Source of the DNA: Paraspadella gotoi
Taxonomy: Eukaryota > Animalia > Chaetognatha
DNA: 64,000 nucleotides
Assembly (NCBI GenBank): GCA_051294375.1
Contig: CM119263.1
Location: 24,780,688 to 24,844,687 of the forward strand
Direction: 5' to 3'
This document shows, piece after piece, positions 1 to 43,116 of this stretch. Each line of letters begins with the position of its first letter. Position 1 is the stretch's first letter. Under the pieces are notes generated by a model, which did not search any database, was not told the DNA's origin, and saw nothing but the letters and a program-made list of their open reading frames with translations. A program made the position numbers and the translations under genes.

Positions 1-651
1 TCAAACACTGGCAAGTCGCTACTAATTAATCTCATTGTTGACTGTCTTCAATGTGGCTCTCTCGTGACTGGTTCGTCATTCGCTTTTTCGGATTTAGCCG
101 TGCAGGGGTGAGATCATGTGACTGTTCAGTTGGACGTCGCCATATTGGGCCCATCTTTCCTTTCTCCTCTGTTGTTTTTTTTTTTTGCCGCAGCGTCGAA
201 TGTTTACGCCACGATGAACTTTCAACGGGATCCGGTTCAAAAATTAGCGTCAATGCCCTGAAACTACTCTTTGGTGGGGAGCGTCTTGGCGTCAATCGTA
301 AATTCAAATCTTCCCGATTCATTTCTGGCATTCCAGTTATCGTCTCTTCTAATCAATCTATCGACGAATTATGCGACAACCCAGTTGATATGCCGCGTTG
401 AGGTCACGTTCAGTCGAATTAAAATTTTCCGTTCCAATTTTAAACGAGAAGCACTCAAAGACATAGCCCGCGTGAGGCAAGCTTATGGACTGCCCGATCA
501 CATTAAAACTATCCCCGAGAATGACAATTATTTACACTCGGAGGCATTATTAATGTTATTTAAGTATTATTATAAAGATTCTTTCGGGCAACCACCCCCC
601 CTCGTCGACGATATATCAGTTACTGATTTTTTAAACCCCCGTTTTAAATAA
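1..651 (+). CDS. SF3 helicase, parvovirus NS1/Rep-like, C-terminal part (5' truncated; intron 108-193; frameshifts after ~390)
   Basis: Frame 1 from nt 1 reads SNTGKSLLINLIV (Walker A) ... SFAFSDL. Removing GTGAGA...TTGCCGCAG (108-193) joins in frame to VECLRHDEL (Walker B) and LKLLFGGERLGVNRKFKSSRFISGIPVIVSSN (B'/C motifs). An ALRSR arginine-finger-like segment follows in a shifted frame at ~392. Confidence 0.85.
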
Positions 652-814
652 AAAAAATATATGCGATGGGCTAGAACCCCAGACCTTTTGGTTATGAGAC
701 GAGACGAACTCTCCCTCTCTCTCTCTCCCTCTCTCTTCTGCATTTAATTTTTAAACTCGTTGTCCTCGATACCGAGGTGATTCGAATTGATTTGTTTACA
801 GAAATTTCAACGAC

Positions 815-1458
815 ATGATGTCCCAAGACGAGAGCTTTTCGAATAAACTGGAAGATCTCCTTCGCGACGAATGGAAAAATGCGATGAATGCCACTCCCAG
901 TCCGATAAAGGGCGATCTCATGCAATTGCCTACACCAAAACACGTCCCACGACATATAACACACAAAAGGAACGAGGATGACCTCGACAATACATTACCA
1001 GACAAGGACAAACGGCGCATGGCCCATAAAGGCGACAAAGACGACTTGGACAAAGATTCTTTCTCGGACGACGACAACATCTTCAAAGACGAAAAACTCA
1101 TTGCGGGCCTCGAGGATCGCACACCTAAATATGTATATGAAAAGAAAACCACCACCCCAAGAGGCCACAAAACTACAAAAAAAATTTTATCTCGGGGGAA
1201 CTTTAACTTCGATGCTGACAATTTTCCAAGCCAATCGAAGCAATCGTGCTTAGACTTTTTTTGGGGAAAAAAAAACCAAATCATGGCTATGAGACACGGA
1301 GGATAAAAATAAAAGTGTCCTTAGCAACGCGAGAAGCTCGTTCGTGTGGAAGAACGCCCAATCTCCAATTCGAACGCCCACGCCAACCCCTAAAAGATTT
1401 CACGACGCCTCGGTTCAAACCGAGGACGATATCCAAAAAAAAAAAAGCAAAACAGTGA
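815..1458 (+). CDS. Hypothetical viral protein (acidic then basic, disordered; frameshift near 1270)
   Basis: ORF 815-1306 is clearly homologous to ORF 32382-33029 (MNATPSPIKGDLM, DDDNIFKDEKLIAGLEDR, NFPSQSKQSCLDF). Nucleotide similarity continues to ~1490. A TTTACAG acceptor lies just upstream. Confidence 0.65.
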
Positions 1459-2198
1459 CTATCACTACTACAGAAGTCAGTTATTTCGAATACTAACTAC
1501 ATCGTGTCAACTCTCAGCCATTGTCTCATCTTGTAATAAACACAACGCCTCTCTCTCTGTTTCTGTTTTTCTCTTCTCTCTCCATCTTCTCTTTTCTTCA
1601 TTTCTTCCTTTTTTTTAAACCCAGTTCCATCTAATGTGTACATTTTTTACGTTTTTATTCAATGATACTGTTTTAACCCCGCAATATATTTTAATGTATA
1701 TGTTTAAGGTTTGTCGTGTACTAACTAATTCGAATTTTTATTCCCATTTCAGATGAAAATTTTATCGTTTCCTTCGAGTTGACGCTTGTCCAGTCGTGTG
1801 AATCACCCGTTGCAACTTTAGTTTTCGACTAAACCAATTGGGAAAAGGTTAGTTTTTATTTTCTTTGTTTTTTTTTTCCGAGAAGTTTTATATAAGTTGT
1901 TATCCGCCCTTACCAGCTATCGCCGAAACAAACACGTCGGTGATGACATTTCCACGGTTGTCGTCGAGATGATCCAAGAGTCTTTCCCCGCCCGCCCATT
2001 GTCTACCCGAATGACTTTAAAACTTCTTTGCCGCTCATCGCGCTGCTAAAACAAGGTAATTTATTTTTTTTTGTTAATTGTTTAAAAATTTGAATTAATA
2101 TATTTTAATCTTTTTACAATAAGGCGCCAGAGTGAAGCGCCGCGAGTTGGACAACGGTTGTCTCTTGTGAGTCAACGCGCGCGGCGTTTTTCGTCACC

Positions 2199-5100
2199 AT
2201 GAACGCCGTGCACGCCGCCATTCAAACAGACGCCACGCGACCGACCACTTGCTACAAACAGACTATTCAGTGGATTGTGGTCAAATCGTCCATGATTATT
2301 GGCCAGAAATTAAATGCGATTACAGTGTCCCACCCAACGTATTATGTGCAATGTTTGTGTATAGATTGGCAAAAAATAGACCGAATCCAAATGATAAAAA
2401 TTCGGCCCCAGACCGCTTAGCAGAGCACCCAGCTTTGATACAATATATCGACAGTATATTGGCAAATTTTTTTACGGGACAAAGTTACTTTTTCAATTTT
2501 AATTTTTCGACCATCATATTCACAGAGAATACCAGCCGCTTCTCGTATAGTTCGCGAAATAATCTAACTTGTCTTGAAAATGCAAAATTAGTACACAACG
2601 AGAGGACGAGGTCACAATTGATCACCTCGTTGTGTGAATTTAGTATACGACAATATGAAAACTACAGTACAGAAATAATTAAAGAGAAATATATACCAAC
2701 AAAAATTGTTTATCTATCATTTTATGGGTATATAACTATGGTTCCACATGTTTTGTTGGCTGTGATTTAACAGTAAGCCCACCAGGTTTCAAACTCCCCC
2801 AGGAACCGTCAATGTTAGTAGAAATGCCGAACGGGGTGGCGATACCGACAATATGTGCGTATTTCAATCTTTTTCTGTCTTTCTCCAAGTAAAAAAGGCG
2901 CAGGGTAAAACCATCATCGAACACTTGTCGATACAAAGAAAAAAATTAATAATGCGACAGCTCTTAAACTCAAGAAATATTTCAAGCTTTTCGTTCAGCA
3001 CAATTACGCATCTTTAATCGGTGACATTTTTCCAAATTCCACTTCTTGTCTCAGAGTTACGCCCAAAGTATGGGATATGCTAGAAGAGGCATTCCAAAAT
3101 ACTATCAATATCTATGTGAAGGAATTCCCATTGGTGATCGACAGGAGAGGCAACTCCTTAAAAATTTCAAATAAAATTAATGCCAACAGATATTTCCTCA
3201 TTAGAAATTCCAATTCAAATGCTTATCGGGTTAACCTTTTGCAAATCGACAACGACTCGACTCTAATTAAACACGTAATCCCTATTCGAAATTTGCATTT
3301 ATTTGGTCGGAAGCACTTTTGTCCGCTGTGCAATCAGAAGTACAACGAATTCAAGGGGTTGGTTAAACATAAATGTTACAATGATAACTCTGTCAATAAT
3401 TTTGTTAGTGAGCAAATGGTTCAATTCCAGTCGTCAGCAGACTCTCTAATTAAAAAACTTTATCCTGATTTTTTACCAGATTTGTCGGCAGTCGAAACGC
3501 CACCTTTTTTAATGTTATTTTTGAAGTCGGTCTGCGATTCGGAAACTCGATACAGTTTAATATTTAATTCTGCCTCATTGGGCAAATTTTCAGAAACAAG
3601 AACGTTTAACGATGTAAATTTAGCAACTGTTTACTTATTGCGGCTTTTTGGAAAAAATTTGCAACTTTTTTAAAGAAAGAAAAAAGATTCATTTTAAAAA
3701 TATTCTACTCCAACTCGAAAAAGACAGAAACCAAGCGGAAGAGTCGGGGAATGTCAATTTAGGTAATGCCCACCGCAAACCGATGGCATTACTTAATCAT
3801 TTAAGCAACCAAATTGACGATTTTGTTTCCAAGACTTTGTGTTATGTTATTGACGAGGATGACAACTCCACCAAGAATAGTACATTTTTAAGTTCGGTTC
3901 TCTATCTCCTACAATTAACAGATAAAAAAACTTTAAATTACAGTTTTTACAAAGGTAAAATCCACAAAGTATGGGCAACCCATGGTTGTGTTCGCTTTGT
4001 CAATTTAAGCCTCACAGACGACGCCTTCGCTTATTCTCAGCTGAAGTTGGAAGCGGGGCCACCAACGCTACCGTCGTCGCCAAATTCGTCATCGCTGTCA
4101 TCCCTCGTCGACTGGAACGAACATGAGGCTGTGTACGGTCAATACAAAAAACTGTTAGAAAGTCTGGCTTACATCACCGGAAAAAACTTACTGGGTTATC
4201 GTGGTGAGACTGTCTCTGGTGTTGCCACGCACTACTTCGCCAGCTTTTTAAAGAGAAGCACCCTCGTGTCCCTTATCAGCCCACCCAGCGAATTGGCGAG
4301 ACTCATATTTCTCGAGAGTAGGTATGGCTATCTCATGGCCCAGACTGAAAACAATATTATTCATAGAGATGCCAAATTTAAATCAGTGGTTGAAGTGGAC
4401 GCAACCAAATATTACTGTAATCTACTAAAAGAAAGTCAATTTTTCGTTGGGTATCCATTGACTTTCGAATTATGCAATGATAACTATGAATTAGTAAATC
4501 GTCGACTATCAAAGAATTCATTCGCGAATATACTTTTAATGACACTCTCAATATACTTAAGGTTAGACATTTCACACCAAGCCCAATCCTTTGAACTCTG
4601 TATGCCAAATCGTAGAATCCACATCGACGGCTTCGTAGATAATACCACGTTAGGGGAACCCGATCAAATTCTGCAAATTCAAGGCTGCTACTGGCACTCA
4701 TGCTCACAACCATCCACTACATGACCGAACATCTTAGCACTAATACCACCGCCACTACCACAGTCGGAAAGGCGTTGTCACCAGACCCGAGAACTCCAAT
4801 TAAGAGGCCCGACCCACTTCGACCCCAGACATGGAGAGCAAATTGTAAAATGTCTGAATAGAAACCAAATTCATCAACAAAAAAAATTACACACAGAGAA
4901 GTTCGGATTGAGACTCTTAGAATAGAAGAATATATATTAAACGCAATTCGTGGACAAACCATTAACTATACGCCTATTTGGGAATGTGAGGTTGTGAGAC
5001 TTTGGGACGAACCACTTGAAAACGTGGTTAAGTTTTTTAAACTTCCAGTTAACCACAACGACGCTTCAATCAATACCAAGATTTCTTGGGCGAAGCTTTT

Positions 5101-6246
5101 AAATGCTAGCCCGAGGCCCAATTCCCATCACTAAAAAAGAAAATAAATGTTAATAACTTCGTCTCGTGCATTAAGAACCGAGTAGTTCAAGGCTATGTAA
5201 TCGTTTCGGCCGAATTGGGAGAGGAGTCTCAAAAGGTTTTAGGTGACTTCAAACCCTTTTCCCAAATTGTAAACGGTCGGGTCAGAAATAGATTTAATTT
5301 GATTAAACAATTAGTCACAACCACCTTTTTAGAATTTTTTATCAGAAAAAGAGAAGATGGGACTTTTCCCGACTTCGAAATAACGACCGTCCATAAAATT
5401 TTCTGTTATCGGACAACTGACGAACAACCATTTAAATATCCTTGCGACAAATTGTTGACCCTCATGAAGTCGGAGATTCCCAAAGGCAGTTCGTTGATGA
5501 CACTTACAAAAAAATTAAGCAATTCCTTAATTGGGCGATTTTCATTTAATAAAAATAAATATTGCACCAGCTTAGTAATCGATAAAAATGATTTTTCAAA
5601 TTTAAACTCATTAAAAAGTTTTAAAAATGCAAATCTAGTACATGGAAATTCATACATCGCCTTTTTTAACGACTGGAGTAAAATTCACAACTTGTGCCAT
5701 CTGCAATACAACCTAATATTAGATGGAAAGGTCGGGCTCTTGGATTTCTATCTAAAACTGCGGACANNNNNNNNNNCAGAATTATTTTTCACAAACTGTG
5801 ACTCTCTTGTGTTGTCGAGTGAATATGCACTCCCAGGCGATTGCTTTTACATGCTGCACCCCGTACTAGTACTNNNNNNNNNNCTAAAAACTAACGAATT
5901 AAACGAGAAAGATTACGAAAACTATGCGAATTTAAAGATTAGCGCGTTTCAAAAGCCTCATGTCTGCCCAAATCACTTGACGGATTATATTTTCTGTTTG
6001 AAGTATGGTCAGTTATTCCAGCCTAGAGATTGCTGTGTAGCTTTTATCAACGCATCGAACGCCCTGGTATTCAAATTGGAACAAGTTGGTAATTTGGCAC
6101 TCGTCGGCAAGAGTAATAGACTGCTATTAATAAACACACACACAAATGAAAAAAAGGTTCGTTGCCCGGGTATCTATGATAAGCGTTTGGATAATTTGAC
6201 TAACCTAACCCTTGAAGAAATTGGGAGAACTTTTAGTGATTATTAG
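2199..6246 (+). pseudogene. Protein-primed family B DNA polymerase (Polinton/adintovirus type), split by frameshifts
   Basis: N-terminal HVIPIRNL..FCPLCNQKY..HKC zinc module; motif A VEVDATKYY; embedded nuclease-like IDGF...QIQGCYWHSC; motif B KKLSNSLIGRF; motif C FTNCDSL. The fragments are collinear. Frameshifts could be sequencing errors. Confidence 0.85.
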
Positions 6247-6613
6247 TTTATTTCGCGTCAATTCGCAAAACAGAACCACGATCATATTAAAAAAAAAGGA
6301 CACTTTTATTTTTATTCTGTCGGCAATTCTTTTCTTAGTTGTTTATTAAATCCAATGACAATGTTTTTTCTCATCACGTAATTTTTTTTTTAAATTGATT
6401 TTAATTTGTTTTGCTGTTTGTTATTCCCCCGTAGCATCCCTCCAGAGTCCCGCACTGTTATGTCGCCTTTTAATAAATTAAATTTGCATTTAATTTCCCG
6501 CGTTCAATGTCTTTTCTTAATTTTGGGAACATGTCGATGCCAAAAGATAACCGACCATCCATTTTTTGTTCCCTAGAAAAAACGTACGTGATTATCGATG
6601 ATCAAGCTAGTTA

Positions 6614-6832
6614 TCAGGAATCCAGAATGTGTTGCAAGGCGCATTTCCCTTTGGACCTTTGCTTGCGGCGTCGTCCTCTGGTTTTCTTCGAGGCAGCACT
6701 TTTACCCCGGCGACGAGACCGTCTCTTGTTCTTTCGGGACTTCGACAACATACCAAAGAAACGCTTTTTCCAATCAGTCTTTGACGATTTGTTGGCCGCC
6801 GCTTTGCGTTTAGTTTTGCGTCGTCTTGCCAT
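6614..6832 (-). CDS. Small Arg/Lys-rich protamine-like protein (putative DNA-condensing core protein)
   Basis: MARRRKTKRK...RRSRRRGK...RGRRRKQR directly downstream of the capsid gene. Paralog at 48229-48377. May extend to ~6420 through a frameshift. Confidence 0.65.
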   Translation of the reverse strand: MARRRKTKRKAAANKSSKTDWKKRFFGMLSKSRKNKRRSRRRGKSAASKKTRGRRRKQRSKGKCALQHILDS

Positions 6833-6889
6833 TTTTAATAAATCTACTTAAGATATAAAGAAAAACATATCATCGATTGTCAGTAAAAT

Positions 6890-8474
6890 CTACTCGTCTT
6901 CATCGACAATAATTCCATTGACATCGATTTTAATCTCTTGATCAAAATATGAAATAACATTTAAAATTAAGTTTTCCGTTAACGCGTCGTCAAAACGTAG
7001 CTCCAAATCTAAACTACCACCGAATGCAGTCTTCAACGACGGCGCCAGAGCGGTCTCCGTCGTCGCCCACTCGTCCGTCAGTACTGGGCTTAGGTTAAAC
7101 GTTAGAAGAAAGAAATCATTCGCGTAAACTTTTTCAGTAATTGACCGAGCTTTCGCGCCGTAACAACGAAGGAAATTTTGGTACAACAATTTCATGTCCA
7201 TCGAATGATTCGATAGGTTTAGAGACCCATACAATTCGCACAGGGGGTGGCGGGTTCCATTCACATACAAACGAGCACTCCTCAGGCCATGGTGTTGGTA
7301 ACTAAAAAGTGCTGTCTGTGTGTTACCTAATTCGGCTTTCTCTTTGGTAAAAAATATTGATATAAAACGCGATAGCTTTGACCAATTAAAAATACTGTTA
7401 AGTCTAAAAATCTGAGAGTTGGCCAATATCTGAAAGCTGACAAATTTAAATGAAGGCGTCGTTCTGACGATCGAATTTTGTTCTATTTTTGACAGATACA
7501 TATCCCTCAGCTGGGAACTCATGCTGGCTTGGTTTACGATTAGAAACATCTTAATTATGACTATCTTGTAGCTTTTGTCACCCCCTTTGTCATCATATAT
7601 CAAGACTTTGTTTGGATTCTCCAGTTCGAAGTCAATGGTAAATGTGTCTCGCACGGGGAGAATGCAGTTAGTGGAAAAAAATTTACACAACATGCCGATC
7701 GGGAAGAGATAGTTAAGCGGCCTTTTTATGCATTTTTTTAAAACAATGCTTCGAAGCCAAAGCCCTTCGTTTATGCTGGCCCTTTCCTTGTTCAATTGCA
7801 GTATTTCTTCTCTCGTTCTGTCAAGAGCCGCTGCCTTTTCTGTTGTGGTGGCAATCTGGCGACCGGTTCCAAGCTTTTTGGTTACACAGTCACATTTTTG
7901 ACATAAGCATGTCACTATGGGATCCCTTAGACTGACATCGGAGCTCAAACCAGGCGTGTCTGGTTGGTAGCCAACGCCTGAGAGTAGTTGCTCTTTCTCT
8001 TCGTTTGAATAGTGGGTCATCAAACGAATGTAGGTTTCGTGTCTATTGAATGGAAAAAATCGCCCCTTTTCCATCCCCTGTTGACTTATTTTTACATGGC
8101 GAAACATATTGATTGGAAAATATTGATTTACTGATAGCTCGTCGGTTGCATCAATTAAATTGTTGTCTCCTCGATAGATTCTAACCCGAAGCCCAATTTT
8201 GCAAAATCGAAGAATCATCTGTGCGACAAACAAAAATATATTTACGTGATTTGGTGGATAAAAGTAAAAAGCATTTAAATTGATAAATGATTACCTCATT
8301 CGACAAATTTGCGGGGATTAAGAATCTAATCGTCTGGCTTTCCGGGGTGATCGGAGTAGTGGGATGCACCATTATTTCACTAAAGCGCTCGAATGTCGCG
8401 TCTGTCGCCTGTACATCCGCCAACTTGGAATCGTCAAACACCACAAGTTTACTCTTCGTGGAAACCGTCTCCAT
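6890..8474 (-). CDS. Major capsid protein (Polinton/adintovirus hexon-like, double jelly-roll), 2 exons: 8474-8295 and 8218-6890, ~502 aa
   Basis: Typical Polinton MCP segments: KSKLVVF N-terminus, GYQPDTPG, NEGLWLR, FSYQHHGLRSARLYVNG, FLLTFNLSP, GSLDLELRFDDAL..YFDQEIKID. Phase-0 GT-AG intron at 8294-8219. Confidence 0.88.
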
Positions 8475-8547
8475 TTTTATTGTTATTGTGTTTATTGAAA
8501 TTAAACTAATACATAGAAAAATATAAATTTAATTATTATTAATTTAT

Positions 8548-8855
8548 TTAAAAACAGCAACAGTGACGGGTTTTTGGTTTTGTCAAGTTTTTCTTAATTT
8601 TATCGGAATTTTTTTCGACATTAGAAATAAAAACGTTATCTAAAAATTCAACCTCGATCTGAATGTCACGGATTTTGAGCTGAAGCTTTTTTTTTTTTGC
8701 CCGCAGCATTCGAATTTCGCGATCTCTCCATTCCATTTCAGGCTTAACTTTTCGGTCCAACGATTCATCCATCATCTCATAGCCCAGTTGATCAACCGAA
8801 TAGAGACTCGTCCTAACCCCATCCCCCACCTCTCCAACATCGCAGTTTCGGTCAT
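8548..8855 (-). CDS. Small coiled-coil protein with polybasic-CCCF C-terminus
   Basis: Intact 102-aa version at 42735-43043; a 1-nt frameshift occurs here near the start. The diverged paralog at 50102-50409 also ends RHCCCF. Confidence 0.65.
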
Positions 8856-8913
8856 GGTGAATTAATACAAAATCGTTTATAAAATTAATATTTCAAATTT
8901 AACTAAACGAGAA

Positions 8914-9252
8914 TTACAGTTGCGTCGACAACAATGGCGTAGAAGATCGCAATGGTGGGCCTATCGGTAGGGTCTCTCGACTGAGGCGCAATTCTCTTTT
9001 ATTTTTCAACGATTCCACCAGGTGCCTGTCGTGACTGTCCATAACTCCGCGATACTCTTGATAGAGTTCCACGAGAACTGACTCGACTTCCTCTTTCCGT
9101 CTATTGGCGTAGTTCAGGTTTGCGACAAGAGAATTCAATTCGTTTCTAAGTTTCTCAATTTCATTCCTACGACTTTGTAGTTCGTACAACACGTGACTAG
9201 GTAACTCCTTTTTGAAAGCTAGTTCGAACATTTGCAATCGGACAGATTCCAT
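8914..9252 (-). CDS. Small coiled-coil hypothetical protein (112 aa)
   Basis: Intact ORF. The diverged but intact paralog at 50465-50800 keeps the frame and most residues. Confidence 0.75.
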   Translation of the reverse strand: MESVRLQMFELAFKKELPSHVLYELQSRRNEIEKLRNELNSLVANLNYANRRKEEVESVLVELYQEYRGVMDSHDRHLVESLKNKRELRLSRETLPIGPPLRSSTPLLSTQL

Positions 9253-9615
9253 TTCAAAACGGAAAATTGAAAAAAGAAAACTTTAATATAATAAAAACGA
9301 AGATAATATTTTTCAACTATGCTTTACAGCGATAACAACGACAAATCGACTAAATCTGTGTAAATGGATTATAAGTAAAAGTAAATTAAAAAAAATTCAC
9401 AGCCATGATGACGATAAACAGATTTGCATGAGTATTATTCTTATTGCAAAGAAAAAAAAAGAACAAGGAAAGAAAACAAACTATCTGACAACGAAGCACG
9501 ACTATCAAGCGGTATAAAAAAAAATTAAAATGTTCCAGAAATTGAACCTTAACTGCGATATAAAAAAATTTAATTAATAAAATTTAAAATTTCTAATACA
9601 AACGAAAAATTGTAT

Positions 9616-11522
9616 CTAAGGAAAGAAGTATTTGCACTTCTTCCTATTTTCGCAGTCCTTATGTTTTTCCGCGTCAACTAGACTGTCTATGGAGTGGGAA
9701 ACAGTTTCAGCCTCGACGACGAACGCCTTACACGCGTCGTAGGCGCTCTCATCGTGACTCCCGCGCTCCATCCGCCACAACAACGGCCAAACGTACGACA
9801 GCACTTTTCGCGCATCTACTACCAGCTTGTCGACCCTTTTCTTTAGACCGTAGCAACGCAGAATGTACGGGCCACGGCGCACGTTTTCCTTGATGAAGTT
9901 TATCCGGTCGTACACCACCGACGCCCGCCTCCGCAATTCACTCACACAGATTAGGAATATCGCACCCATGGTCGGCTTTACTTCTCCCAAGATCACGAGA
10001 TCCTCATTCGTGCCGTCCTCATCCTCATTGAATGTCCCATCGAGCAAACTACCCCCATCGGTGTCCATGGAACCTTCACCACCATCGATCTCTTCGTGCC
10101 CCAACTCGACCAAGCGGCGAAGCTCGTCAACCACCAAAGGACCCATCTCCTCCTCCAATTCTGTTCTTCCCATCGAAGCGACTTGGGACTGGATGGCCAT
10201 CGTCGCCGTGTTCGCCCCTACCATCTCCGCCTCCGCCTCTGCACCCACCGTCTCCGCCTCTGCACCCATCGTCTCCACCTCCGCTTCTACACCCGGCATC
10301 TGCGCCTCTGCCTCTGCCAACTCCGCGCCCATCCCATCTCCCATCTCACCTCCTGCCTCCAGCCCTGACATGTCTGTCGCCTCCTCTGCCGCCTCCTCTG
10401 CCATCTCCGCCGCCTCCAACTCTGCCATCTCTGCCGCCTCCAACTCTGCCATCTCTGCCGCCTCCTCTGCCATCTCCGCCGCCTCCACCTCTGCAATCTC
10501 CGCCTCCATCCTTGTCATCTCCGCCTCCTCTTCCGCCATCATCTCCGACTCCGTCATCAGCTCCTCCAACCCAGATTCATTTGTCGACTCTGGGTAGCCC
10601 ACCGAGCCCGACACAGTCGTTTCCCTAACGGAAACCTGATCACCCACGGACAGGGGGACCTCCAAAACTGCCACGGGTAGTTGTGGCAGCGTCTCCTGGA
10701 TCTCGGTTAAGATTTGAGCCGCCTCTTCCTGACTCAAATCCCCCAATGTGTCGGTCGACGCGACTTCGACAAATCTCGGTGCGACAACTTGGAGTGTTCC
10801 ATTGTCGTCGGTGGCCACCGAGATATCCATGCCAAGCTCGGACATTGACCGAGTGGCATGGATAGATGGCAAGTGGGATTGATTGTCGTATTGATGTTGG
10901 ACTCCGGGCTGTTGGGCTTGCCATTGTGGAGCCAAAATGGGCAAACGAGAAGACGCTTGCTGTTGCTGCTGTTGGTACTGCTGCTGTTGCTGGTACTGCT
11001 GGTACTGCTGCTGCTGCTGCTGGTACTGCTGCTGCTGCTGGTACTGCTGCTGTTGGTACTGCTGCTGTTGTTGTGGCTGCTGATACTGCTGCTGCTGTTG
11101 TGGCTGCTGATACTGCTGCTGCTGTTGTGGCTGCTGATGTTGAAGCTGCTGCTGCTGATGTTGATGCTGCTGCTGCTGTGTGGCTGCTGCTGCTGTTGTT
11201 GTTGTTGCTGCTGCAAAACGTTTTGCTGAGTGGCGATGACATGCGGCCGCCAAGGAACAACGATGGCCATTGCACATCACGTGTTCCATTGGTTGACTCG
11301 TGTTGCCAATTGTGGGTGGATTTGCATTGGCAAACCAGAAAAAGTCGGTCGTGGACCTTGGTTCACGTTGAAAGGCGGTCCATGGGATGATGAACCGCCG
11401 CGCGAGAAGTGGCCATCGTTGAAGCCATTCAAGCTGTTTAGAATTCGGTCCAACTTGACCTCCAGACGATCCAGAAGTTGCACCGTGGCGTTGTCCATCG
11501 TCGGAAATTGATTGGCCATCAT
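9616..11522 (-). CDS. PolyQ / acidic-repeat protein with helical C-terminal domain (frameshifted near 11280)
   Basis: ORFs 11277-11522 and 9616-11289 are joined in the copy starting at 40089. It has CAG-rich Q tracts and AEMAEEA repeats. The C-terminus KKCKYFFP is conserved in lineage B (51066-51176). Confidence 0.7.
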
Positions 11523-11877
11523 ACCAGAGATAATCTGAAGAAAAAAATGAAAAAAAAATATTAAAATCTTTTACTTGTACATATATATATATATAATTCT
11601 ATCGGACAACAACTAAAACGCCAAGCAATTTTTTGGTGAAATAAAAAAAAAATTCCAACGAAATATATAATAATCGTTTAAGCTAATTACAAACAAGGAA
11701 AAAAAAAGAAAGCGACAAAAATTTTTTTTTGTGAATAAAAAAAAAATTCCAAAGAAATGTATAATAAGTAATACATTTAATCGTATAAGCTAATTACAAA
11801 CAAAGAAAAAAAAGAAAGCGACAAAAAAATTTTTTATTTAAAATTGAAGATAAATGGCAAAAAGTCAGAGTTTGTTT

Positions 11878-12527
11878 TTAATTCGACGACTCCATTGGCA
11901 AATCCGTTGGATTATTCTCCGTTGATGGCAGTAGATACAAGCCCGTCAGCTGATTGAGGCTGACAGAGCCCTCCTCGACGAGCCCAGACAAAATGCCATT
12001 GATTTTTTTTTTTGCATAGAGACCCCTGACGAAGCCAACCTCGGCGGAAACATATTCCTGGACAAACTTCCGCGAGACACCAACACTGCGGGCGCCCATC
12101 TTCAGCGAAGCCAATATGGCCGAAACAACCTCCGGTTGTGTGACATTTTGGCGACGCGTCGATTTGCCGTTGTCGACAACAAAAGCTGAGCGCTTGATGC
12201 GAGAAACGCGGTCTTCGAGCGCCACGATCTTTTTGTGTAACATCGAGATGGAGCACTCATTGGCGACCACCCTGTCGCTAAGCGGAGCATAAGGCGTCGA
12301 AGCCTCGGAAAATGTGGCTAGGGAGGACCCCGGCGATGACGGCGGACTCTGTGTAGCAACGCCTGAAGGCACGGCCTCGTCGTTTGAAGAAAAATCAACT
12401 CCCGTTTAACAGGAAGTGAAATGTCAGGCGTTTTAGACGTTGATGCCTCCAACGGTTCTATCGAGTTGAACAATGGGCGATGCGAATTCATCTCCGGTCG
12501 CAGATTGGCCGATGTAAAATGGGCCAT
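11878..12527 (-). CDS. Protein with linker histone H1/H5 globular (H15 winged-helix)-like domain
   Basis: PEVVSAILASLKMGARSVGVSRKFVQEYVSAE...KKKINGILSGLVEEGSVSLNQLTGLYLL follows the H15 pattern (I..AI....GSSR..I.KYI...L..LV..G.L....G.F.L). The probable start ATG at 12527 needs one extra base in the homopolymer at ~12390. Confidence 0.6.
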
Positions 12528-12548
12528 TTCAAAGTTTACAAAGAATGG

Positions 12549-12589
<41 letters not shown>

Positions 12590-12909
12590 AAGATACAGAA
12601 AAAAAAGTTTTTTTTATGTTGGGGGGCCTTGAGAAACGAAAGTTTTTTTATATTGTGCGCTGTGAGATTCGAAAGTTTTTTTTCTTATGTGACGCTGGGA
12701 AAAAAAATTCGACAGAGATGTTAACGCGAGAGAATCACAAAACAAAATGAGAAAAAAATTTAAACCGGATCAAGCTATATACGAACAAGAGACGTTTCTC
12801 CAAATTTTCATGGTCTCCGATTTGACGTAAGAATTTTGAAATTCTCACAGCCTGCAAATGGACTCAGAGTTTCTGCGTACATTCGCGGGCCCTGAGAATT
12901 TCGAAATTC

Positions 12910-13440
12910 TCAGTGTTTTGATTGGAGGAAAATTTTGAGCGTCACCGCCACCCCCCCCCAAAAAAAAAAGCAAATGGGCCCGGGCGCAGCTGTCGTTCGA
13001 ATCATTTCCCTTGGGTCGTCTCTCTGCGAGACGAAGAGTGATCGTGAGCTTCGCCGCGTCCGAAAAGAAAACGAAGATGAGGAATCGGCCTCGTCATCCG
13101 TACCGCTTTCCCCTGGCCCGGGTTCACCAGACTCGCACCCCTCGCTGCCTTCGTCGACGTCATCGTCTTCTTCGTCCTCAGAGGAATCTGTTCTCTTTTC
13201 CTTCTTTTTGCCTTTTTTTTCCTTTTCACTGGGTTCCATCTTTTTAGATTTAGACGTTTTAGACGATTTTGTCTTATTTGTTTTTTTTGTGTTTTCTTTG
13301 TTTTGGTTGCGTTTTGGTTTTTTGTTGTTGGTTTTTTTTTAGATTTTTTGCTGTCTTTTTTCTGGTCGGTCGTTTTCTTTTTTTATTTGACGAGGATGTC
13401 GCTGTAGATTTCCCTCGAAGTACTTTCAAAACGATCCTAT
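12910..13440 (-). CDS. Lys-rich then acidic low-complexity protein, partial (5' end in gap)
   Basis: ORF 12910-13239 (KEKKGKKKEK..DSSEDEEDDDVDE) preceded by in-frame Lys/Thr-rich sequence; same strand as the neighbouring viral genes. Confidence 0.4.
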
Positions 13441-14166
13441 ATCAGATGCTGTGATAGTTTTGCAACTCNNNNNNNNNNNNNNNNNNNNNNNNNNNNNNNN
13501 NNNNNNNNNNNNNNNNNNNNNNNNNNNNNNNNNNNNNNNNNNNNNNNNNNNNNNNNNNNNNNNNNNNNCCGAAATAATTGTCCGAGAGTAATTTACATTG
13601 TTAATCAACGCAAATGTAGAAGCAATTGAGATACAAACGGCATTGAACGGCAAATTGAAAGGCATTGAAACGGCAATTGAACGAAATAGAAACGCATGAA
13701 CGGCAATAGAAGCTGGACTATAAAAAGAATAATATAACGAATTAATAAAAACGCTTAATATAAAAATTAAAATCATAAAGAAACATTAAAACAAAACCTG
13801 CTTCACGCCACGTAAAGCTAGAGAAACTATAATACATTCTTACTTTCTCTCACAAAGGTAAGTTTGCTTCACTTAGATTATATAGAAAACGTTTTAGGCA
13901 AAAAGAGCAACGATTTTTGGGAAACTTGAAACACGGAAATAATTTAACAGGGTTCTTGTAGAGCTTAAGAAGTTAAAATGAAAGTTAGTAGCTGATAATT
14001 TTTTCAAATTTTGACAATAAATTGGTTAAAAATAGAAAAAACCTTAAAAAATTATATCATCATCATTATTGGCCCATTTTTTAATTTTTTCATAAATAAA
14101 ACAAAAAAAAAGTTGTATAATAACTTTATCTTAACTTTTTAAGGCTCTATCATCAGAATCTATAAA

Positions 14167-32055: not shown

Positions 32056-32385
32056 ATGGAACAAGACAATGAGCAATATATGCTTAACATTAAGCAAGGC
32101 GACATTAGTTTTTTTAAAAAACCTCTCCAAGAGTCTTTGTGCTTAAGAGACATTTACGAAAAAATTTCAATGGATAAAACTTGCTTAATAATATTGCACC
32201 AGGATAAAAATAACCCGGACATGGTAACTTGTGTGCATATTTTATTCAAAGCCCTTTATAAATCTAAAAAGAGATCGATAATTTCGGGAATATTTACTAG
32301 GGGTGGGATGTCTTTCCCTAAGAACGGAGACAACCAGGATTTTGACGAATATTTTCAAGAAAACTGCATAACCATATCACGATGA
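32056..32385 (+). CDS. Hypothetical protein (109 aa)
   Basis: ATG-initiated ORF with ordinary composition whose stop overlaps the next start (ATGA). No motif recognised. Confidence 0.35.
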   Translation: MEQDNEQYMLNIKQGDISFFKKPLQESLCLRDIYEKISMDKTCLIILHQDKNNPDMVTCVHILFKALYKSKKRSIISGIFTRGGMSFPKNGDNQDFDEYFQENCITISR

Positions 32386-33029
32386 ACGCCACTCCGAGTC
32401 CGATAAAAGGAGATCTAATGCCATTGCCTCGACCTACTCATGCCCCGCGACGCGTAGCTGACAAAGGCAACAAAGAAACCAATAATGTGTTCTCGTGTGG
32501 TGACAAGCAATGCATGGCTAACAAAAGGAACAAAGATGACATGGACAATGCTTTCTCCGATGACGACGACAACATTTTTAAAGACGAAAAACTCATTGCC
32601 GGCCTCGAGGATCGCAGACCTAAATATGTCTACAAAAAGAAAACCACCACACCAACAGGTCACAAAAATATCAAAAAAACTATAACCCAAGGAAACTTTA
32701 ACTTCAACAATGACAATTTTCCCAGTCAGTCCAAGCAATCGTGCTTGGACTTTTATTGGGGTAAGGAAAAACCAAATTGTGGTCGTAGAGACATCGAGAA
32801 TAAAAATAAAACTGTTCTTAGCAATGCGAGTAGCTCGCTCACATGGAAAAATGCACAATCTCAAGTTCGCACGCCTTCGCCAACTCCAAAAACATTCCAC
32901 GACGCCTCGGTCCAAACAGACGGCGATATACCAAAAAAAAAACCAAAATGGTCACCGTTACTACTACAGAAGTCACTTATTCCGAATTTTAATAACATTG
33001 CGCCCGAGTCCCACTCTGAGTCTTCTTGA
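32382..33029 (+). CDS. Hypothetical viral protein, paralog of 815-1458
   Basis: Intact 215-aa ORF sharing conserved blocks with the lineage A ORF. Confidence 0.65.
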   Translation: MNATPSPIKGDLMPLPRPTHAPRRVADKGNKETNNVFSCGDKQCMANKRNKDDMDNAFSDDDDNIFKDEKLIAGLEDRRPKYVYKKKTTTPTGHKNIKKTITQGNFNFNNDNFPSQSKQSCLDFYWGKEKPNCGRRDIENKNKTVLSNASSSLTWKNAQSQVRTPSPTPKTFHDASVQTDGDIPKKKPKWSPLLLQKSLIPNFNNIAPESHSESS

Positions 33030-33827
33030 CTATAAAACTCTCTATCTCTCTCTCTCTATCTCTCTCTTTCTCTCTCTCTCTCTCCCTCCCCTCCCTCTCT
33101 CTCTCTCTCTCTCTTCGTCGTCGTCGTTTTTTAATCTAATTTTAATCATACGTGTACATTTTCTGTATTTTTGAATATATGATGGCGTTTCAATACCAAA
33201 GTATCTTTTAATGCATTTATTAGAGATTTTTTGTATACTAATTGTAGTTTTTTTTCCAATTTCAGATGATATTTCACATTTTCCTTCGAGTTGACGATTG
33301 TCCGAGTCATTTTACCCATCATTAGAAACGGTGTTTCCCATCCAACAAAGACGAAAAGAAAGGTTTGTTTTATTTTTCTATGTATGTTTATTTCTCTAAA
33401 ATTATGTTTTAAAAATTATTTATCCTCGTATCAGTTATCGTCCACAACAACATGTCTGGTAGGCGCCGATAGTTCACAAAAGACAACAGTGCGATTCTCT
33501 ATCCTGGCGACATTAGATCTCCTTCGTTGCTGCTTACCATATTATTGAAAACCGGTAGGTTACTTTTAGTTTAATTATCGAAAAGAAATGAAAATATAAT
33601 TTTATTTGCCTTTTTTAACAGGACTTCAGGGTAAAGCGTCGCGACAGGGAGAAGAGAGGGAGAGAAAGAGAGAGAGGCGTGGGCGTTTTTAGTCGAGCAA
33701 CGAGTAAGTAATTCAAATTCGCTGCTTATATTTTTCTTGGCGTTGTAATTCGAAAGCAAACTTTAAGAAAACATTTTTTTTTCTATTGCAGTAACATCGA
33801 CTCTTCGTCACGGCTTTTCTTGCCAAC

Positions 33828-35610
33828 ATGAACGCCGTGCACACCGCTATTCAAATGGACGCCGTCGCGACAGACCAACTGCTGAAAGCCGACTATTCGG
33901 CGGAATGCGTTCAAATCGTTGATCATTATTGGCCAGAAATTAAATGCGATTATAGTATCTTGCCCAATGTGTTATGTGGGATGTTTGTGTACAGATTAGC
34001 CAAAAATAGACCAAATCCAAATGAAAAAAAATTCGGCGTCTGACCGCTTAGCAAATCATCCCGCCTTGTTACAGTACATCGACAGTATATTGACAAATTC
34101 TTTTCATGGACAAAGTTATTTTTTTAATTTTAATTTTTCGGCCATCATATTCACAGAGAGTAACAGTAGTTTCTCGTACAGCTCACGCAATAATTTAACC
34201 TGCTTAGACAACGCAAAATTGGTACACAACAAAAAGACGAGGGCGCAGTTAATGGTCGCTTTGCGGGACTTTAGTCTACAAACTTACGAAAATTATAGCA
34301 CCCAAATAATTAAAGAAAAATATATACAAAGCAAAATTGTTTATCTGTCACTCTATGGTTATATAACTAGGGTTCCTCATGTTTTGTTCGGTTGTGATTT
34401 AAAATTGAACCCCACTGGTTTCAAGCTACCCTCGGGCACCGTTAAAGTCGACAACAATACTGACCAGAATGGCTATTCTAGAAACATGTGTGTATTTCAG
34501 TCTTTTTCTATTTTTCTTCAAATAAAAAAGGTACGGAGTAAGACCGTAATCGAACCCCTGTCGAATGCAAAGAAAAAAATTAGTAATTTGGCAGCTCTTA
34601 AGCTTAAAAAATATTTCAAGCATTTTGTTCAGAACAATTACGCGTCTTCATTCGGCGATATTTTCCCAAAGTCCACTTCTTGTCTCGGAGTTTCGCCAGA
34701 AGTATGGGATATGTTAGAAGAGGCATTTCATGTAGCTATCGATATCTACGTGAAAGAATTCCCAATCGTCATCGAAAGGAAAAGAAACTCTTTAAAGATT
34801 TCGAATAAATTTAATGCTAACAGATATTATCTAATTAGGAAGTCCAAATCTAATGGTCACCGCGTCAACCTCTTGCAAATTGACTGCGAGTCAACTCAAA
34901 TTAAACATGTAATTCCCATTCGGAATTTACATCTCTTTGGCCGAAAACACTTTTGTCCGTTGTGCAATCAAAAGTACAACGAATCGAGGCGATTAGTTAA
35001 CCATAAATGTTACCAGGATAATTCAGCCAACAATTTTGTCGGTGAGCGACTGGTTCAATTCCAGTCGTCAGCAGACTCTCTAATTAAACAAGTTTGAGCA
35101 AAACAATGTCGGATCTGCCTACGATAATTAATTAATTAATTGATTAATTAATTAATTAATAGATTAATTAATTAATTAATAGATTAATTAATAGATTAAT
35201 TATAATTTATATTCAGCTTGTCATCATCGATGTCCTTAAAATTGAGTCAGGACAGTTTATTAAAATGTTTTGTTTCATTTTATCAAAACAAACAAATATC
35301 CTCTATTATCGAGCCAGGCGGGCAAGCCCGTCCTGTCTAGATTTTTTTTCGGTTTTAGCTTTCGGTCTCGCTTTTTTGCAATCATGGCTTCTGAAAGTGT
35401 GATATCATAGGGAGTTGAATTTTCATATATGGCTTCTAATCAATCAAGATCTTTAAAATTCTCATGTTTCATGTCAATATTGGTATTTGTTTATGTTTTA
35501 TTTACAAAACAAAAACGTTTTTAATTATATGTCGCTCTCTCTCTCTCTCTTTTTCTCCGTCACTGCTTCTTCTAAAAACGAGTTCCGGCTCTGCAGCGTC
35601 TGTCCAGCTT

Positions 35611-35650
<40 letters not shown>

Positions 35651-38600
35651 CAAAAAAATTTTTTAGATATAATGTGGGTTCACTAATGTAAAAAACGATG
35701 CCACGAACAGGGCGCGAACCCGGGTCCTTTGGGTAGAGAATAGCTCACGCTACGTGCGGCGCCATAAGTACTGCTGATTTCTTTAACGAGTAAAGGGGCT
35801 GTAGAGCTTCTCTCTCTCTCTTTTAATTATTATATATCGCTCTTCTCTTTCTCTTTTTCTCTGCAGCGGCTGTCTCTCTCTCTCTCTCTTTTTCTCTCTC
35901 TCTCTCTGTCTCTCTGTCTCTCTGTGTGTCTGTCCCTATCTGTCCGATCTTTGCGTGAATCGTTTGTTTTTTGAAAAATTCTGATTATTTTTTTCCTTCT
36001 AAAAACTTTTTATTATTGCCATTTATTCCGCGCTTTTTTTCCAATACAAAAATCCCATATTTTCATCGAGATTTTCGTGGATTTATTCTCTTTCTTTCTC
36101 TCTTCTCCTTCTCTCTCTCTCTTTCTCTCTCTCTTCTCTTCTTTCTTTTCTCTTCTCTCTCTTCTCTTCTCTCTCTCTCTCTCTCTCTCTTTCACTCATA
36201 CACGCATTTGTTTGTTTTATTGACTATCATCGAATCAATGAATGACAATCATCGCATCAATGCAATGACAATCATCGCATCACTGAATGAACTATCATCA
36301 CAGCAGTGAATGACTAATCATCGCATCAATAATTGATTATCATCGAATCAATAATCAATTCCTATTACAATCCAATAAAATTACTATTACATCAATCAAT
36401 TACTATTACCTCAATCAATTACTAGTACATCAACAATTCGTTATCGCATGATTCATTCGTTTTTTTCCGGTTTTTTTCATTAATTTCTATGATAGTGGGG
36501 CTCTGGCTCGATCTGAGTCTTTTAAGATTTTTTTATTTTATGTCTCCTTCTCTCTCTCTCTCTCTCACTCATCTCTCTTTCTCTCTCACTCTCTCTCTCT
36601 CTCTCACTCTCTCTTTCTCTCTCTCTCTCTCTCTTTTTAGCAATAGCGACGATCCTTATGCTTTTAAGATTTTTTAACTTGCATCATTTTTTCAACTGCA
36701 TAATTTTTTCAACTTGCATTCGTCAAAACTTTATATCTAGATTCTTCACTCACTTTCTACGGCTCACAAAATTTCATCTCAATCTATCATGCGTTAAAAT
36801 AAATAAAAAGATTCAAGTAAATGTGACTCATATTTTTTTCATTTAAACTCATTTCCACTGGTACGTTTCCACTGAAACTTTATATCAAGCTTCGTCATAC
36901 GTTTTTCCTACCCACACACAAAATTTCAACTCAATCTATCCATCAATTATGATTAATTGGAGTATTTATTGGTTAAAATAAGTAAAAAGATTTTAGTAAA
37001 TTCGACTTATGTTTTTTCCATTTAAACTAATTTCCACCTCCACGATTCATCGAAATTTTATATCCAGCTTTATCACACACTTTCCTACCACACACACAAA
37101 ATTTAATTCCAATCCAACCAGCCAATCACGAGTTATTGGAGCTTTTTGCTAAGATGGACGGATGGACGGATTGATTGACTAATTAATTAATTATTGATTA
37201 ATTTATTTACTAATTGATTATATTAACTGATTAATTATTTGATTTATAATACATCCTGCAGATACATTTAATATAAAAGGAAAAAGAAGCATAATCAATT
37301 AGTAAAACAGGTTTTTTGTTTTTTTTCCATTTAAACTCATTTCCACTCAAACTATTCCATCGAAACTTGATTTCCTGTTCAATCACACACTTTCCTACCA
37401 CATACAAAATTCCAGGTCAATCAGCCCATCCACTCATGAGCAATTGGTGTTCAAATAGTGAATATATTTTTTTATGTTTTTTCGCATTTAAACTCATTTC
37501 CACTCGGACGATCCATCGAAACTTAATATCCAGCTCAATCACACACTTACCTATCCACACACAAAATTTCATTTAAATCCATCCATCCAATCACGAGTAA
37601 TTGGTGTTTTTTTGCTAAGGTGGGACGGACGGACGGACGGACGGACGGACGGACGGACGGACAGACGGAGGACGGACATCATTTTTTTTTGCATAATTTA
37701 TCATAATTCGATGTCTGACATGATATAAGTGTGTGCCCGACAATATTGAGGGGGCGGAGAACCGACGGACCGAAAAAGTGAGTTATAAAAAAGTGAGTAT
37801 AGAGTCGGGATCTGCCTGATAAGCAGATCCACTAAAAAACTTTATCCTGATTTTTTACCAGATTTGTCGGCAGTCGAAACGCCACCTTTTTTAATGTTAT
37901 TTTTGAAGTCGGTCTGCGATTCGGAAACTCGATACAGTTTAATATTTAATTCTGCCTCATTGGGCAAATTTTCAGAAACGAGGACATTCAATGATGTAAA
38001 TGTAGCGGCTGTTTACTATTGTGGCTTTTTGAAAAAATTATGTTGCTTTTTTAAAGAAAGAAAAAAAGAATATTTTAAAAATATTCTGCTCCAGCTTGAG
38101 AAAGACAGGAACCAAGCGGAAGAGTCGGGCAACGTGAATTTGACAAACGCCCACCGCAAACCAGCGGCTCTCATTAATCATCTCAGTTACCAAATTAATG
38201 ATTTTATTTCCAAAACTATATGTTACGTTATTGGTAAGGATGATAATTCAATCACGACTGGTACATTTTTAAGTTCAGTTCTTTATCTCTTACAACTAAC
38301 CAATAAAAAAAACGTAAATTACAATTTTTATAAAGGAAAAATTCACAAAGTCTGGGTAACTCATGGCTGCGTTCATTTCGTCGATTTGAGCCTCACAGAC
38401 GACGCCTTTGCCTATTCCAAACTGAAGCTGGAAGCAGCGCCACCACCGTCGTCTACATCGTCACTGATGCCTTGTATCGATTGGAATGAAGACAAGGCTG
38501 TCTATCGCCAATATCAAAAATTGATGGAAAGTCTGGCTTACATAACAGGAAAAAACTTGCTCGGGTATCTTGGGGAGACTGTTTCCAGTGTCGCCACACA

Positions 38601-39755
38601 TTACTTCACCAGCTTTTTAAAAAGAAGCACCATCGCCTCTTTTATAAGCCCACCCAGCGAACTTGCGAGACTCATATTTCTTGAGAGTAGATATGGTTAT
38701 CTCATGGCCCAAACTGAAAACAATATTATCCACAAAGATGCAAAATTTAAATCTGTGGTTGAAATGGACGCCACCAAATACTACTGCAACTTGCTCAAAA
38801 AAAGTTCAGTTTTCGTTGGATATCCATTAACTTTCCAGTTATGCAATGATAGTTATGAATTGGTAAATCGTCGATTGTCAAAGAATTCTTTCGCGAATAT
38901 ACTTTTAACGACACTGTCGGTGTACCTAAGGTTGGATATTTCGCACCAAGCCCAATCATTTGAGCTCTGTATGCCTAATCGTAGAATTCGCATTGATGGC
39001 TTCGTAGATAATGCTTTGTTATGCGAACCCGATCAAATTCTACAGATTCAGGGCTGCTATTGGCTCTTGCTCGCAACCCATCCACTACTTACCCGAAAAC
39101 CCCAGCACCACCACCACCCAACAGCCAGTTTCCGGGGATCCTTTTCGACCCCAAGTTTGGAGAGCAAATTGCAAAATGTCAGAAATTGAAACCACGATTC
39201 ACCCTACAAAAAAAATTACCCACAAGGAGGTTCGAGCGGAAACTCAGAGAATAGAAGAGTATATATTAGACGCAATTAGCGGACAAAACAAACTGCACAC
39301 CGATTTGTGAATGTGAGGTAGCAAAGCTGTGGGACGAACCACTGGCAAACGCGGTTAAGTTTTTTAGACTTCCAATTAAGTGCGACGACCCATCCATCTA
39401 TACCAAAATTTCTTCAGGCGAAGCCTTTAAATGTACCTCCGAGGCCCAATTTCCATCGCTAAAATGAAAAATAAATGTTAATAATCTTATCTCGTGCATC
39501 AAGGACCGCGTGATCCAGGGTTACGTAATAGCTTCGCCGAGCTGGGAGAGAAGTCTCAAAAGGTTTTGGGTGAGTTTAGGCCATTTTCCCAAATTGTCAA
39601 TGGTCGACTGACAAATAGCTTTAATTTGGTTAAACAATTAGTCACCACTACCTTTCTGGATTTTTTTATCAGGAAAAAAGAAGACGGGACTTTTCCCGAC
39701 TTTGAAATAACGGCCGTCCATAAAATTTTCTGTTATCAGACAGCCGACGAACAAC
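33828..39755 (+). pseudogene. Protein-primed DNA polymerase B, lineage B, interrupted by a HINE and frameshifts; 3' end in gap
   Basis: ORFs 33828-34043, 34021-35097, 37864-39189, 39011-39310 and 39494 onward align with lineage A polymerase; motif A reads VEMDATKYY. Confidence 0.85.
35086..37835 (-). mobile_element. HINE / DINE-1-like element inserted in the lineage B polymerase
   Basis: The empty site in lineage A is CTAATTAAAAAACTTTATCC (~3446-3465). Here the element sits inside that A run. It shows the subterminal inverted repeat GTCGGATCTGC, a terminal palindrome and (GGAC)n at ~37622-37677. Confidence 0.88.
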
Positions 39756-40088
39756 NNNNNNNNNNNNNNNNNNNNNNNNNTAAATTTTTTTGTCGCTTTC
39801 TTTTTTTTTCTTTGTTTGTAATTAGCTTATACGATTAAATGTATTACTTATTATACATTTCTTTGGAATTTTTTTTTATTCACAAAAAAAAAATTTTGTC
39901 GCTTTCTTTTTTTTCCTTGTTTGTAATTAGCTTAAACGATTATTATATATTTCGTTGGAATTTTTTTTATTTCACCAAAAAATTGCTTGGCGTTTTAGTT
40001 GTTGTCCGATAGAATTATATATATATATATGTACAAGTAAAAGATTTTAATATTTTTTTTTCATTTTTTTCTTCAGATTATCTCTGGT

Positions 40089-41974: not shown

Positions 41975-42337
41975 ATACAATTTTTCGTTTGTATTAGAAA
42001 TTTTAAATTTTATTAATTAAATTTTTTTATATCGCAGTTAAGGTTCAATTTCTGGAACATTTTAATTTTTTTTTATACCGCTTGATAGTCGTGCTTCGTT
42101 GTCAGATAGTTTGTTTTCTTTCCTTGTTCTTTTTTTTTCTTTGCAATAAGAATAATACTCATGCAAATCTGTTTATCGTCATCATGGCTGTGAATTTTTT
42201 TTAATTTACTTTTACTTATAATCCATTTACACAGATTTAGTCGATTTGTCGTTGTTATCGCTGTAAAGCATAATTGAAAAATATTATCTTCGTTTTTATT
42301 ATATTAAAGTTTTCTTTTTTCAATTTTCCGTTTTGAA

Positions 42338-42676: not shown

Positions 42677-42734
42677 TTCTCGTTTAGTTAAATTTGAAAT
42701 ATTAATTTTATAAACGATTTTGTATTAATTCACC

Positions 42735-43043: not shown

Positions 43044-43116
43044 ATAAATTAATAATAATTAAATTTATATTTTTCTATGTATTAGTTTAATTTCAATAAA
43101 CACAATAACAATAAAA

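Follow-up and report, generated by a model that had tools for sequence, protein, structure and literature searches.

What kind of element occupies the first 13,468 positions of a 64,000-nucleotide stretch of the genome of the chaetognath Paraspadella gotoi (assembly GCA_051294375.1, contig CM119263.1, positions 24,780,688 to 24,844,687 of the forward strand; the whole stretch is referred to here as the window), and does it belong to a known group of DNA viruses? A first-pass annotation, made from the letters alone, had proposed an intron-containing endogenous virus combining an NS1/Rep-like superfamily 3 (SF3) helicase, a DNA polymerase of family B that is primed by a protein (pPolB), a Polinton-type capsid protein, a protamine-like protein and an H1-like protein, in two diverged lineages and with a gene set fitting neither Polintons nor bidnaviruses. 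Polintons are defined by a pPolB together with an rve integrase, and they usually encode an ATPase, a protease, a capsid protein and a penton as well (PMC4028283; PMC8502044). The answer that we favour, and hold to be moderately probable, is that the element is a provirus, integrated and duplicated in part, from a Polinton-related lineage of nuclear DNA viruses that appears to be undescribed, with a divergent polymerase predicted to be protein-primed, spliced transcripts, and DNA condensed by a protamine-like protein within a likely double jelly-roll capsid. The element works like a Polinton-type virus and is a candidate member of that group.

Two diverged lineages are indeed present. Lineage A (1-13468) is cut by the window start and by a run of N at 13469, and lineage B, located further downstream, shares 73-81% nucleotide identity with it in unmixed blocks. 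The polymerase gene of lineage A (2199..6246, + strand) encodes a divergent family B polymerase, predicted to be protein-primed, with a C2H2 finger, a degenerate exonuclease region, motifs A and B, a Vsr-like insert and a motif C of the form NCD; its frame is broken several times in the window, and indels are seen there in short-read contigs. A search of 1.84 billion representatives with a piece of the lineage B polymerase recovered 20 relatives at E<=0.001 and word searches added one more, giving at least 21 unnamed family representatives. These proteins are about 1300 amino acids (aa) long, and the 10 that were looked up are unnamed ENA proteins. When 1905 pieces from a six-frame translation of the window were compared with a profile built from 16 relatives, 16 pieces matched, every one within the polymerase copies, and six lineage A pieces matched the profile in order, from position 19 to 1293 of 1297, including parts beyond the original query. 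The ordered matches leave no space for an intron, and the polymerase coding region has none. Pairwise identity between the window polymerase and the family is 20-37%. None of the 19 relatives scanned matches a polymerase family of Pfam, including DNA_pol_B_2, and by sequence the polymerase may or may not be of the adintovirus Alpha or Beta type; the best window piece reaches E 0.017 against DNA_pol_B_2. No relatives were found in IMG/VR, a first metagenome scan was also empty, and among the matches of the family profile to PDB sequences that were listed (60 of 110) there were only zinc fingers.

The fold points in the same direction. The model of one relative, P0001, is closest to the phi29 polymerase (E 6e-8; Z 21.0, root-mean-square deviation 4.7 over 470 residues), the next protein reaching Z 12.5. 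When it was compared with viral models, the closest were densovirus-labelled and adintovirus polymerases, at 8-9% identity, and the structural-alignment identity to the listed viral polymerases spans 7-14%. Another relative, P0009, maps to DNA_pol_B_2 clusters in the ESM Atlas (0.95-0.96), the nearest named clusters being nematode-rich. The pPolB of the first-pass annotation is thus supported by the end-to-end profile match and by the phi29-like model of a relative, from which the protein-primed family B polymerase expected of a Polinton, and its activity, are predicted. In the family alignment, the Asp of motif A is found in 16 of 16 sequences, the K-N-G of motif B in 13 of 13; motif C, whose Asp is kept in 12 of 12, has the form NTD or NCD. 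No acidic column of the exonuclease-like region exceeds 9 of 14, and proofreading appears to have been lost. A link between exonuclease loss and helicase gain has been described, as have active polymerases devoid of the first Asp of motif C (PMC11071308). The insert of the polymerase carries an invariant Glu and an invariant Asp and matches Vsr weakly (E 0.11); Vsr inserts are known in the Polinton polymerases of molluscs and marine nematodes (PMC10748475). HelPol was considered as well and was set aside, by description, because it is presented in PMC11071296 as cellular-PolB-like, while the present family folds closest to phi29. Six short motifs sought in the readable supplementary data of that article gave one unrelated match, and the family may still be there.

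A second line of evidence is provided by gene order. The scan of 14 of 64 parts of a metagenome collection yielded at least one related locus, an 8.9-kb contig (L001), whose polymerase is 24-36% identical to the window pieces. Following the polymerase, on the opposite strand, L001 encodes a 62-aa open reading frame (ORF) with 50% Lys plus Arg (K+R) and then a capsid-like piece that aligns with the C-terminus of the capsid candidate of the window (25% identity over 89 aa, E 2e-10), a score reached by none of 2000 shuffles. In the window, the position of the basic ORF is taken by a 68-aa Arg/Lys-rich, protamine-like ORF (6629..6835, - strand; 49% K+R; ratio of nonsynonymous to synonymous substitution rates, dN/dS, 0.14), a candidate virion core protein that fits the protamine-like protein announced earlier. 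The order polymerase, basic ORF, capsid-like gene is kept in all three loci (lineages A and B, and L001) and the helicase is found in one of them; from this, the three genes in their order look like a trait of the family. Both the polymerase family and this distant relative with the same layout speak for an undescribed lineage of mid-size nuclear DNA viruses, and no description of the gene combination was found in the literature, where supplementary data, chiefly those of PMC11071296, may hold it. Upstream of its polymerase, L001 (1-3900) has an ORF of low complexity (431 aa), several short ORFs accompanied by intron-like signals, and short repeats in two arrays, with no informative Pfam match.

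The third member of the block is the capsid-like gene (6890..8474, - strand), which consists of two exons, both under strong purifying selection between lineages A and B (dN/dS 0.04 and 0.07). Its GT-AG intron (8219..8294) measures 76 nucleotides (nt) in lineage A; its lineage B counterpart, of 86 nt, contains an in-frame stop, and neither length is a multiple of three. Because this intron is found in both lineages, there is good comparative evidence that the splicing of the gene is older than their split. In L001, the capsid-like piece begins directly after a pyrimidine tract and AG, suggesting a likely intron at a position that is intronless in the window. As to the nature of the protein, the ESM Atlas gave it a score of 0.97 to unnamed clusters and to a double jelly-roll-like cluster, with 8 of 30 matches in the double jelly-roll-like set and a recognition value of 2068, below the 2300 mark; no match was obtained in a word-based homolog search of 6834 candidates, nor in PDB sequences, Pfam, NCBIfam, phage records or IMG/VR. 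By eye, the candidate fits what we take to be the Polinton capsid pattern, a lead only. A parvovirus-type single jelly-roll capsid gave no match in Pfam or PDB in this incomplete element, and the Atlas points to a double jelly roll. The candidate is thus likely a double jelly-roll protein on the strength of one weak embedding search, and the proposed Polinton capsid protein keeps its Atlas similarity and gains no sequence match.

The genes common to lineages A and B are under purifying selection: dN/dS ranged from 0.04 to 0.23 in 11 of 12 comparisons (codons in poorly aligned stretches were filtered, which lowers dN somewhat), and the twelfth value, 0.49, came from a mosaic block. Introns were also sought ahead of the polymerase. 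The region 1752..2198 (+ strand) has an acceptor at 1752 and GT-AG introns at 1848-1916 and 2056-2123 with counterparts in lineage B. The fact that the splice sites, and not the exon frames, are kept in both lineages suggests that this is likely the spliced leader of the polymerase mRNA. The spliceosomal introns proposed earlier find comparative support in the capsid-like gene, in this leader and in a predicted helicase intron, and are missing from the polymerase coding region.

The helicase requires separate consideration. The window starts within its 3' part (1..651, + strand), with Walker A at the very edge, followed by Walker B, B' and C; the N-terminal part, the expected place of an HUH domain, lies before the window start. 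The piece 195-398 matches Pfam Parvo_NS1 with 24.2 bits (cut-off 20), and all 11 PDB matches at E<=1 are adeno-associated virus Rep or parvovirus NS1 proteins (best E 0.011), which bears out an NS1/Rep-like SF3 helicase. Between Walker A and Walker B, an 86-nt GT-AG intron is predicted (108..193) with an 84% pyrimidine tract; without splicing, the frame hits a stop. The frame is broken in the window after about 398, and the stop overlaps an AATAAA. In one sequencing run, X5, all four substitution places listed in 194-398 fall at third codon positions. The first-pass annotation had this helicase in both lineages, which did not hold, since no helicase motif is found elsewhere in the window. With a helicase at this position in one of three loci, and with a link to the polymerase that crosses a CT microsatellite (702..750) at which short-read contigs end from both sides, its place in the defining gene set is weakened, and it is probably a lineage-specific, swappable module and not a family hallmark. 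In lineage B, the corresponding place (31071-32385) is taken by two ORFs, one zinc-finger-like and the other 110 aa long, together with three short tandem repeats at 31424-31721.

The window is an error-prone scaffold with 11 runs of N, and the read data were used in the form of contigs throughout. Of the words of 5900-9900, a fraction of 0.93-0.96 is present in 9 of 11 listed sequencing runs (one organism, six samples, three studies), one of which may be the source of the assembly. All 30 bins of lineage A are covered by contigs of four runs. For each of the 12 indel rows considered, out of 67, the majority of the depth has the indel in three or more of these four runs, and several adjoin frame breaks; because such shared indels fall near the breaks, the latter are likely assembly errors and not decay. 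No RNA run was listed among those with the sequence. Run X5, first guessed to be RNA, covers intron and spacer without a spliced joint; it was treated as DNA and is silent on expression. Contigs run about 1.5 and 3.5 kb beyond the window start, and those of three runs depart from the window sequence shortly before the N gap that ends lineage A. The left part of lineage B (32380..39755, + strand) comprises an ORF without assigned function, the leader and the polymerase, with a 2.8-kb host repeat within the polymerase and no helicase upstream in 31070-32380. It is followed by a second, inverted copy of lineage A 5429-11832 (39782..46159, - strand; 98.7% identical) and by a further copy (46549..51200, + strand) that is A-like to about 48000, then of lineage B (basic ORF, capsid-like gene and two small ORFs) and truncated near 51200. 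Since 46549-48000 is A-like and the remainder B-like, mosaic joins are recognised around this copy, which would stem from recombination or mis-assembly.

Several points weigh against the reading as an undescribed viral lineage. The scaffold is mosaic as well as error-prone. The fold described above is that of relative P0001 (33 rows; predicted local distance difference test, pLDDT, 81.8) and not of the window protein; the capsid assignment has neither alignment nor fold support, the single-sequence model having a pLDDT of 31.8; and of the six places at which run X5 is listed with a substitution in the polymerase pieces, only two are third positions in the frames of the window. The introns are predicted from sequence comparison. 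The window showed neither a junction between lineage A and host DNA nor terminal repeats: among 477 inverted repeats, the 25 longest are copy-to-copy matches, and the element ends lie outside. Lineage B has no helicase at the matching position, nor was one seen in L001 within 3.9 kb upstream of the polymerase, and the microsatellite between helicase and polymerase is not bridged by any short-read contig. As to genes typical of Polintons, no rve integrase was found among the ORFs scanned with Pfam, an FtsK-like ATPase, a cysteine protease and a penton gave no Pfam match (split exons could hide them), and no convincing second Walker A was detected in six frames. Because the element is incomplete, it does not follow that ATPase, protease, penton and integrase are absent from the gene set.

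These points bear on three other explanations. The element might be a fast-evolving but ordinary Polinton or adintovirus whose integrase, ATPase, protease and penton genes lie in flanks not seen here and whose helicase is a passenger gene. That both ends are cut, with contigs continuing beyond the window start, suits this explanation, and so do the nematode-rich DNA_pol_B_2 clusters nearest in the Atlas, the Vsr inserts of known Polinton polymerases (PMC10748475) and the variable replication module of group 2 Polintons, which often have helicases instead of pPolB (10.64898/2026.06.19.733378). We nevertheless consider it unlikely, given that none of the 19 relatives scanned matches a Pfam polymerase family, that the structural identity to listed viral polymerases is so low, that NTD/NCD is family-wide while the exonuclease acids are lost, and that the capsid-like gene is spliced in both lineages, with an acceptor elsewhere in L001.

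A different possibility is that the helicase is a separate parvovirus-like insertion lying beside the polymerase-capsid element, or misjoined to it at the CT microsatellite. All contigs end at that repeat, the similarity between lineages A and B starts only at 882, the ATG of the next ORF, other mosaic joins exist in the scaffold, and two loci have no helicase upstream. However, there is no N gap between 1 and 5766, contig depth (which is not copy number) is alike on either side of the microsatellite in three long-contig runs (33/34, 13.1/14.8 and 44.9/50.3), a break of short-read contigs at such a repeat is expected, and the helicase lies on the same strand, with a predicted intron of the same size and style as the others, all of which makes a separate origin distinctly improbable. 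Finally, lineage A could be a non-integrated persistent virus or episome scaffolded beside host DNA, the lineage B pieces alone being chromosomal. Its boundaries are the window edge and an N gap, near which the contigs of three runs leave the window sequence, and its genes look intact when assembly errors are allowed for. Nonetheless, lineage A is present with few differences in six samples from three studies, and host repeats both break into related copies and are joined to them, so that we regard this explanation as very improbable.

The remaining features of lineage A fit around the block. An ORF without assigned function (882..1496, + strand; about 205 aa from this ATG and possibly longer upstream) has dN/dS values of 0.15 and 0.23 and no family match. 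Beyond the capsid-like gene, on the - strand, lie a small conserved ORF with no assigned function (8548..8856; dN/dS 0.09), a small conserved coiled-coil-like ORF (8914..9252; dN/dS 0.13) with weak coiled-coil family matches only, and a long acidic ORF containing poly-Gln (9616..11525), whose Cys-containing C-terminus is common to lineage B. The next ORF (11878..12527, - strand) ends in 80 aa that look by eye like a winged-helix or linker-histone globular domain; no linker-histone match was obtained in Pfam or PDB at E<=10, and the H1-like protein proposed earlier was not confirmed. An imperfect inverted repeat with nested palindromes (12802..12935), a candidate origin or regulatory hairpin, folds at -30.4 kcal/mol (z -6.1; 0 of 200 shuffles), the region having been chosen after the repeat was seen. 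The last ORF is a gap-cut, Lys-rich one of low complexity (12910..13400, - strand; 36% K+R in one frame). No Rfam match was found.

Outside lineage A, a compact region is present twice (18400-22916 and 26400-31044; 89% identical, probably error-laden), with intron-like signals and ORFs without assigned function. All 90 of its short ORFs were scanned (46 of 46 and 44 of 44) with no informative family, and the region was not assigned to the element; lying upstream of lineage B across an N gap, it may be the missing left arm. It holds three imperfect repeats at 18640-19110, and folding of 18620-19130 is no better than that of shuffles (z -0.6). The motif GAAATTCTC, picked post hoc, occurs seven times in the window (1.6 expected) and is confined to the duplicated region and the 12802-12935 hairpin. 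The host repeat within the lineage B polymerase (35088-37833), with similar copies at 14150-17036 and 22917-24875, has short hairpins close to either end as well as microsatellites of GGAC, TAAT and CT; we take it to resemble DINE-1-like non-autonomous Helentrons. An inverted 265-bp piece (46160-46424), 100% identical to 48308-48572 and fused to the polymerase copy at 46159, is likely an assembly artefact. Two overlapping, gap-broken copies of a BEL/Pao-like gag are found at 52140-55811 (DUF1759 E 7.7e-4, below the cut-off); BEL/Pao-like elements are, to our knowledge, restricted to animals, which points to an animal host. Finally, 62304-63785 (- strand) contains a 493-aa low-complexity ORF with Arg/Glu and Ala/Glu repeats and no Pfam match.

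If the provirus reading is correct, the genome would be copied by protein-primed synthesis by the divergent polymerase, without proofreading, the conserved sites suggest that its transcripts would be spliced by the host spliceosome, and the protamine-like protein would condense the DNA within a capsid of the double jelly-roll type. The polymerase of lineage A might have its DNA unwound by the NS1-like SF3 helicase, by analogy with what has been proposed for mavirus (PMC11071308). Genes for packaging, for the penton and protease and for integration would either sit beyond the window edges or have diverged past recognition. A bolder version, to which we give only a small chance, is that of a new family-level group of spliced nuclear animal DNA viruses. 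Lineage A would then be a living hybrid of parvovirus and polintovirus, in which a Polinton-type capsid and a protein-primed polymerase devoid of proofreading are combined with a complete NS1-like initiator that acts at the 12802-12935 hairpin and also integrates the genome without an rve integrase. Such a hybrid would mirror the bidnaviruses, in which it is the parvovirus capsid that was retained. Returning to the favoured provirus, it would represent a lineage that Pfam-based surveys miss, as no relative scanned was recognised as a polymerase. The conserved spliced capsid-like gene and the protamine-like gene suggest a virus built like a Polinton that lives in the nucleus in the manner of adenoviruses. 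A helicase beside an exonuclease-degenerate polymerase could be an independent case of the proposed trade of proofreading for a helicase. A further resemblance is to the hybrid from which bidnaviruses have been postulated to originate, and this polymerase family makes both ideas testable.

How, then, does the element compare with known systems? Adenoviruses and adomaviruses are nuclear, with spliced transcripts and basic core proteins, and both features are predicted here from the genes. In contrast to adenoviruses, a hexon-sized capsid protein, IVa2 and other adenovirus genes were not recognised, the copies are integrated, and the polymerase is 7-11% identical in structural alignments. The ORF12 of fowl adenovirus is a captured parvovirus NS1 gene, and some adomaviruses have histone-like genes (PMC11071296). 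Introner-derived introns are known in dinoflagellate Polinton-like elements (PMC11957031), and group I introns have been reported (PMC12220804). The mavirus virophage shares an exonuclease-deficient pPolB, a separate SF3 helicase and the missing first Asp of motif C (PMC11071308), whereas the present helicase is of the parvovirus NS1 type, splicing is predicted, the polymerase has about twice the length, and there is no indication of dependence on a giant virus.

Bidnaviruses combine NS1 and PolB with a parvovirus capsid, a parvovirus-polintovirus hybrid having been proposed as their ancestor (PMC4061559; PMC11071296), and their PolB is close to that of Alpha adintoviruses (E<1e-80; PMC8502044). 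The element resembles Bidnaviridae and bidnaparvoviruses in the NS1-like SF3 helicase beside a predicted protein-primed PolB, in lineage A only, and in the densovirus-labelled top structural matches. It differs from them in that P0001 is only 8-9% identical, by structural alignment, to bidna-type polymerases, far from the closeness to Alpha adintoviruses that bidnaviruses display, and in that the capsid candidate was not parvovirus-like in any search. From Polintons, Mavericks and adintoviruses it departs by a polymerase not recognised as DNA_pol_B_2, the NTD/NCD motif C, the degenerate exonuclease, the spliced capsid-like gene and the NS1-type helicase of one lineage; the part seen also yielded no recognisable rve integrase, ATPase, protease or penton. 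With these same elements it shares a large polymerase of the protein-primed type that is extended at its N-terminus and contains a Vsr-like insert, a capsid gene that is likely of the double jelly-roll kind, and its integrated state.

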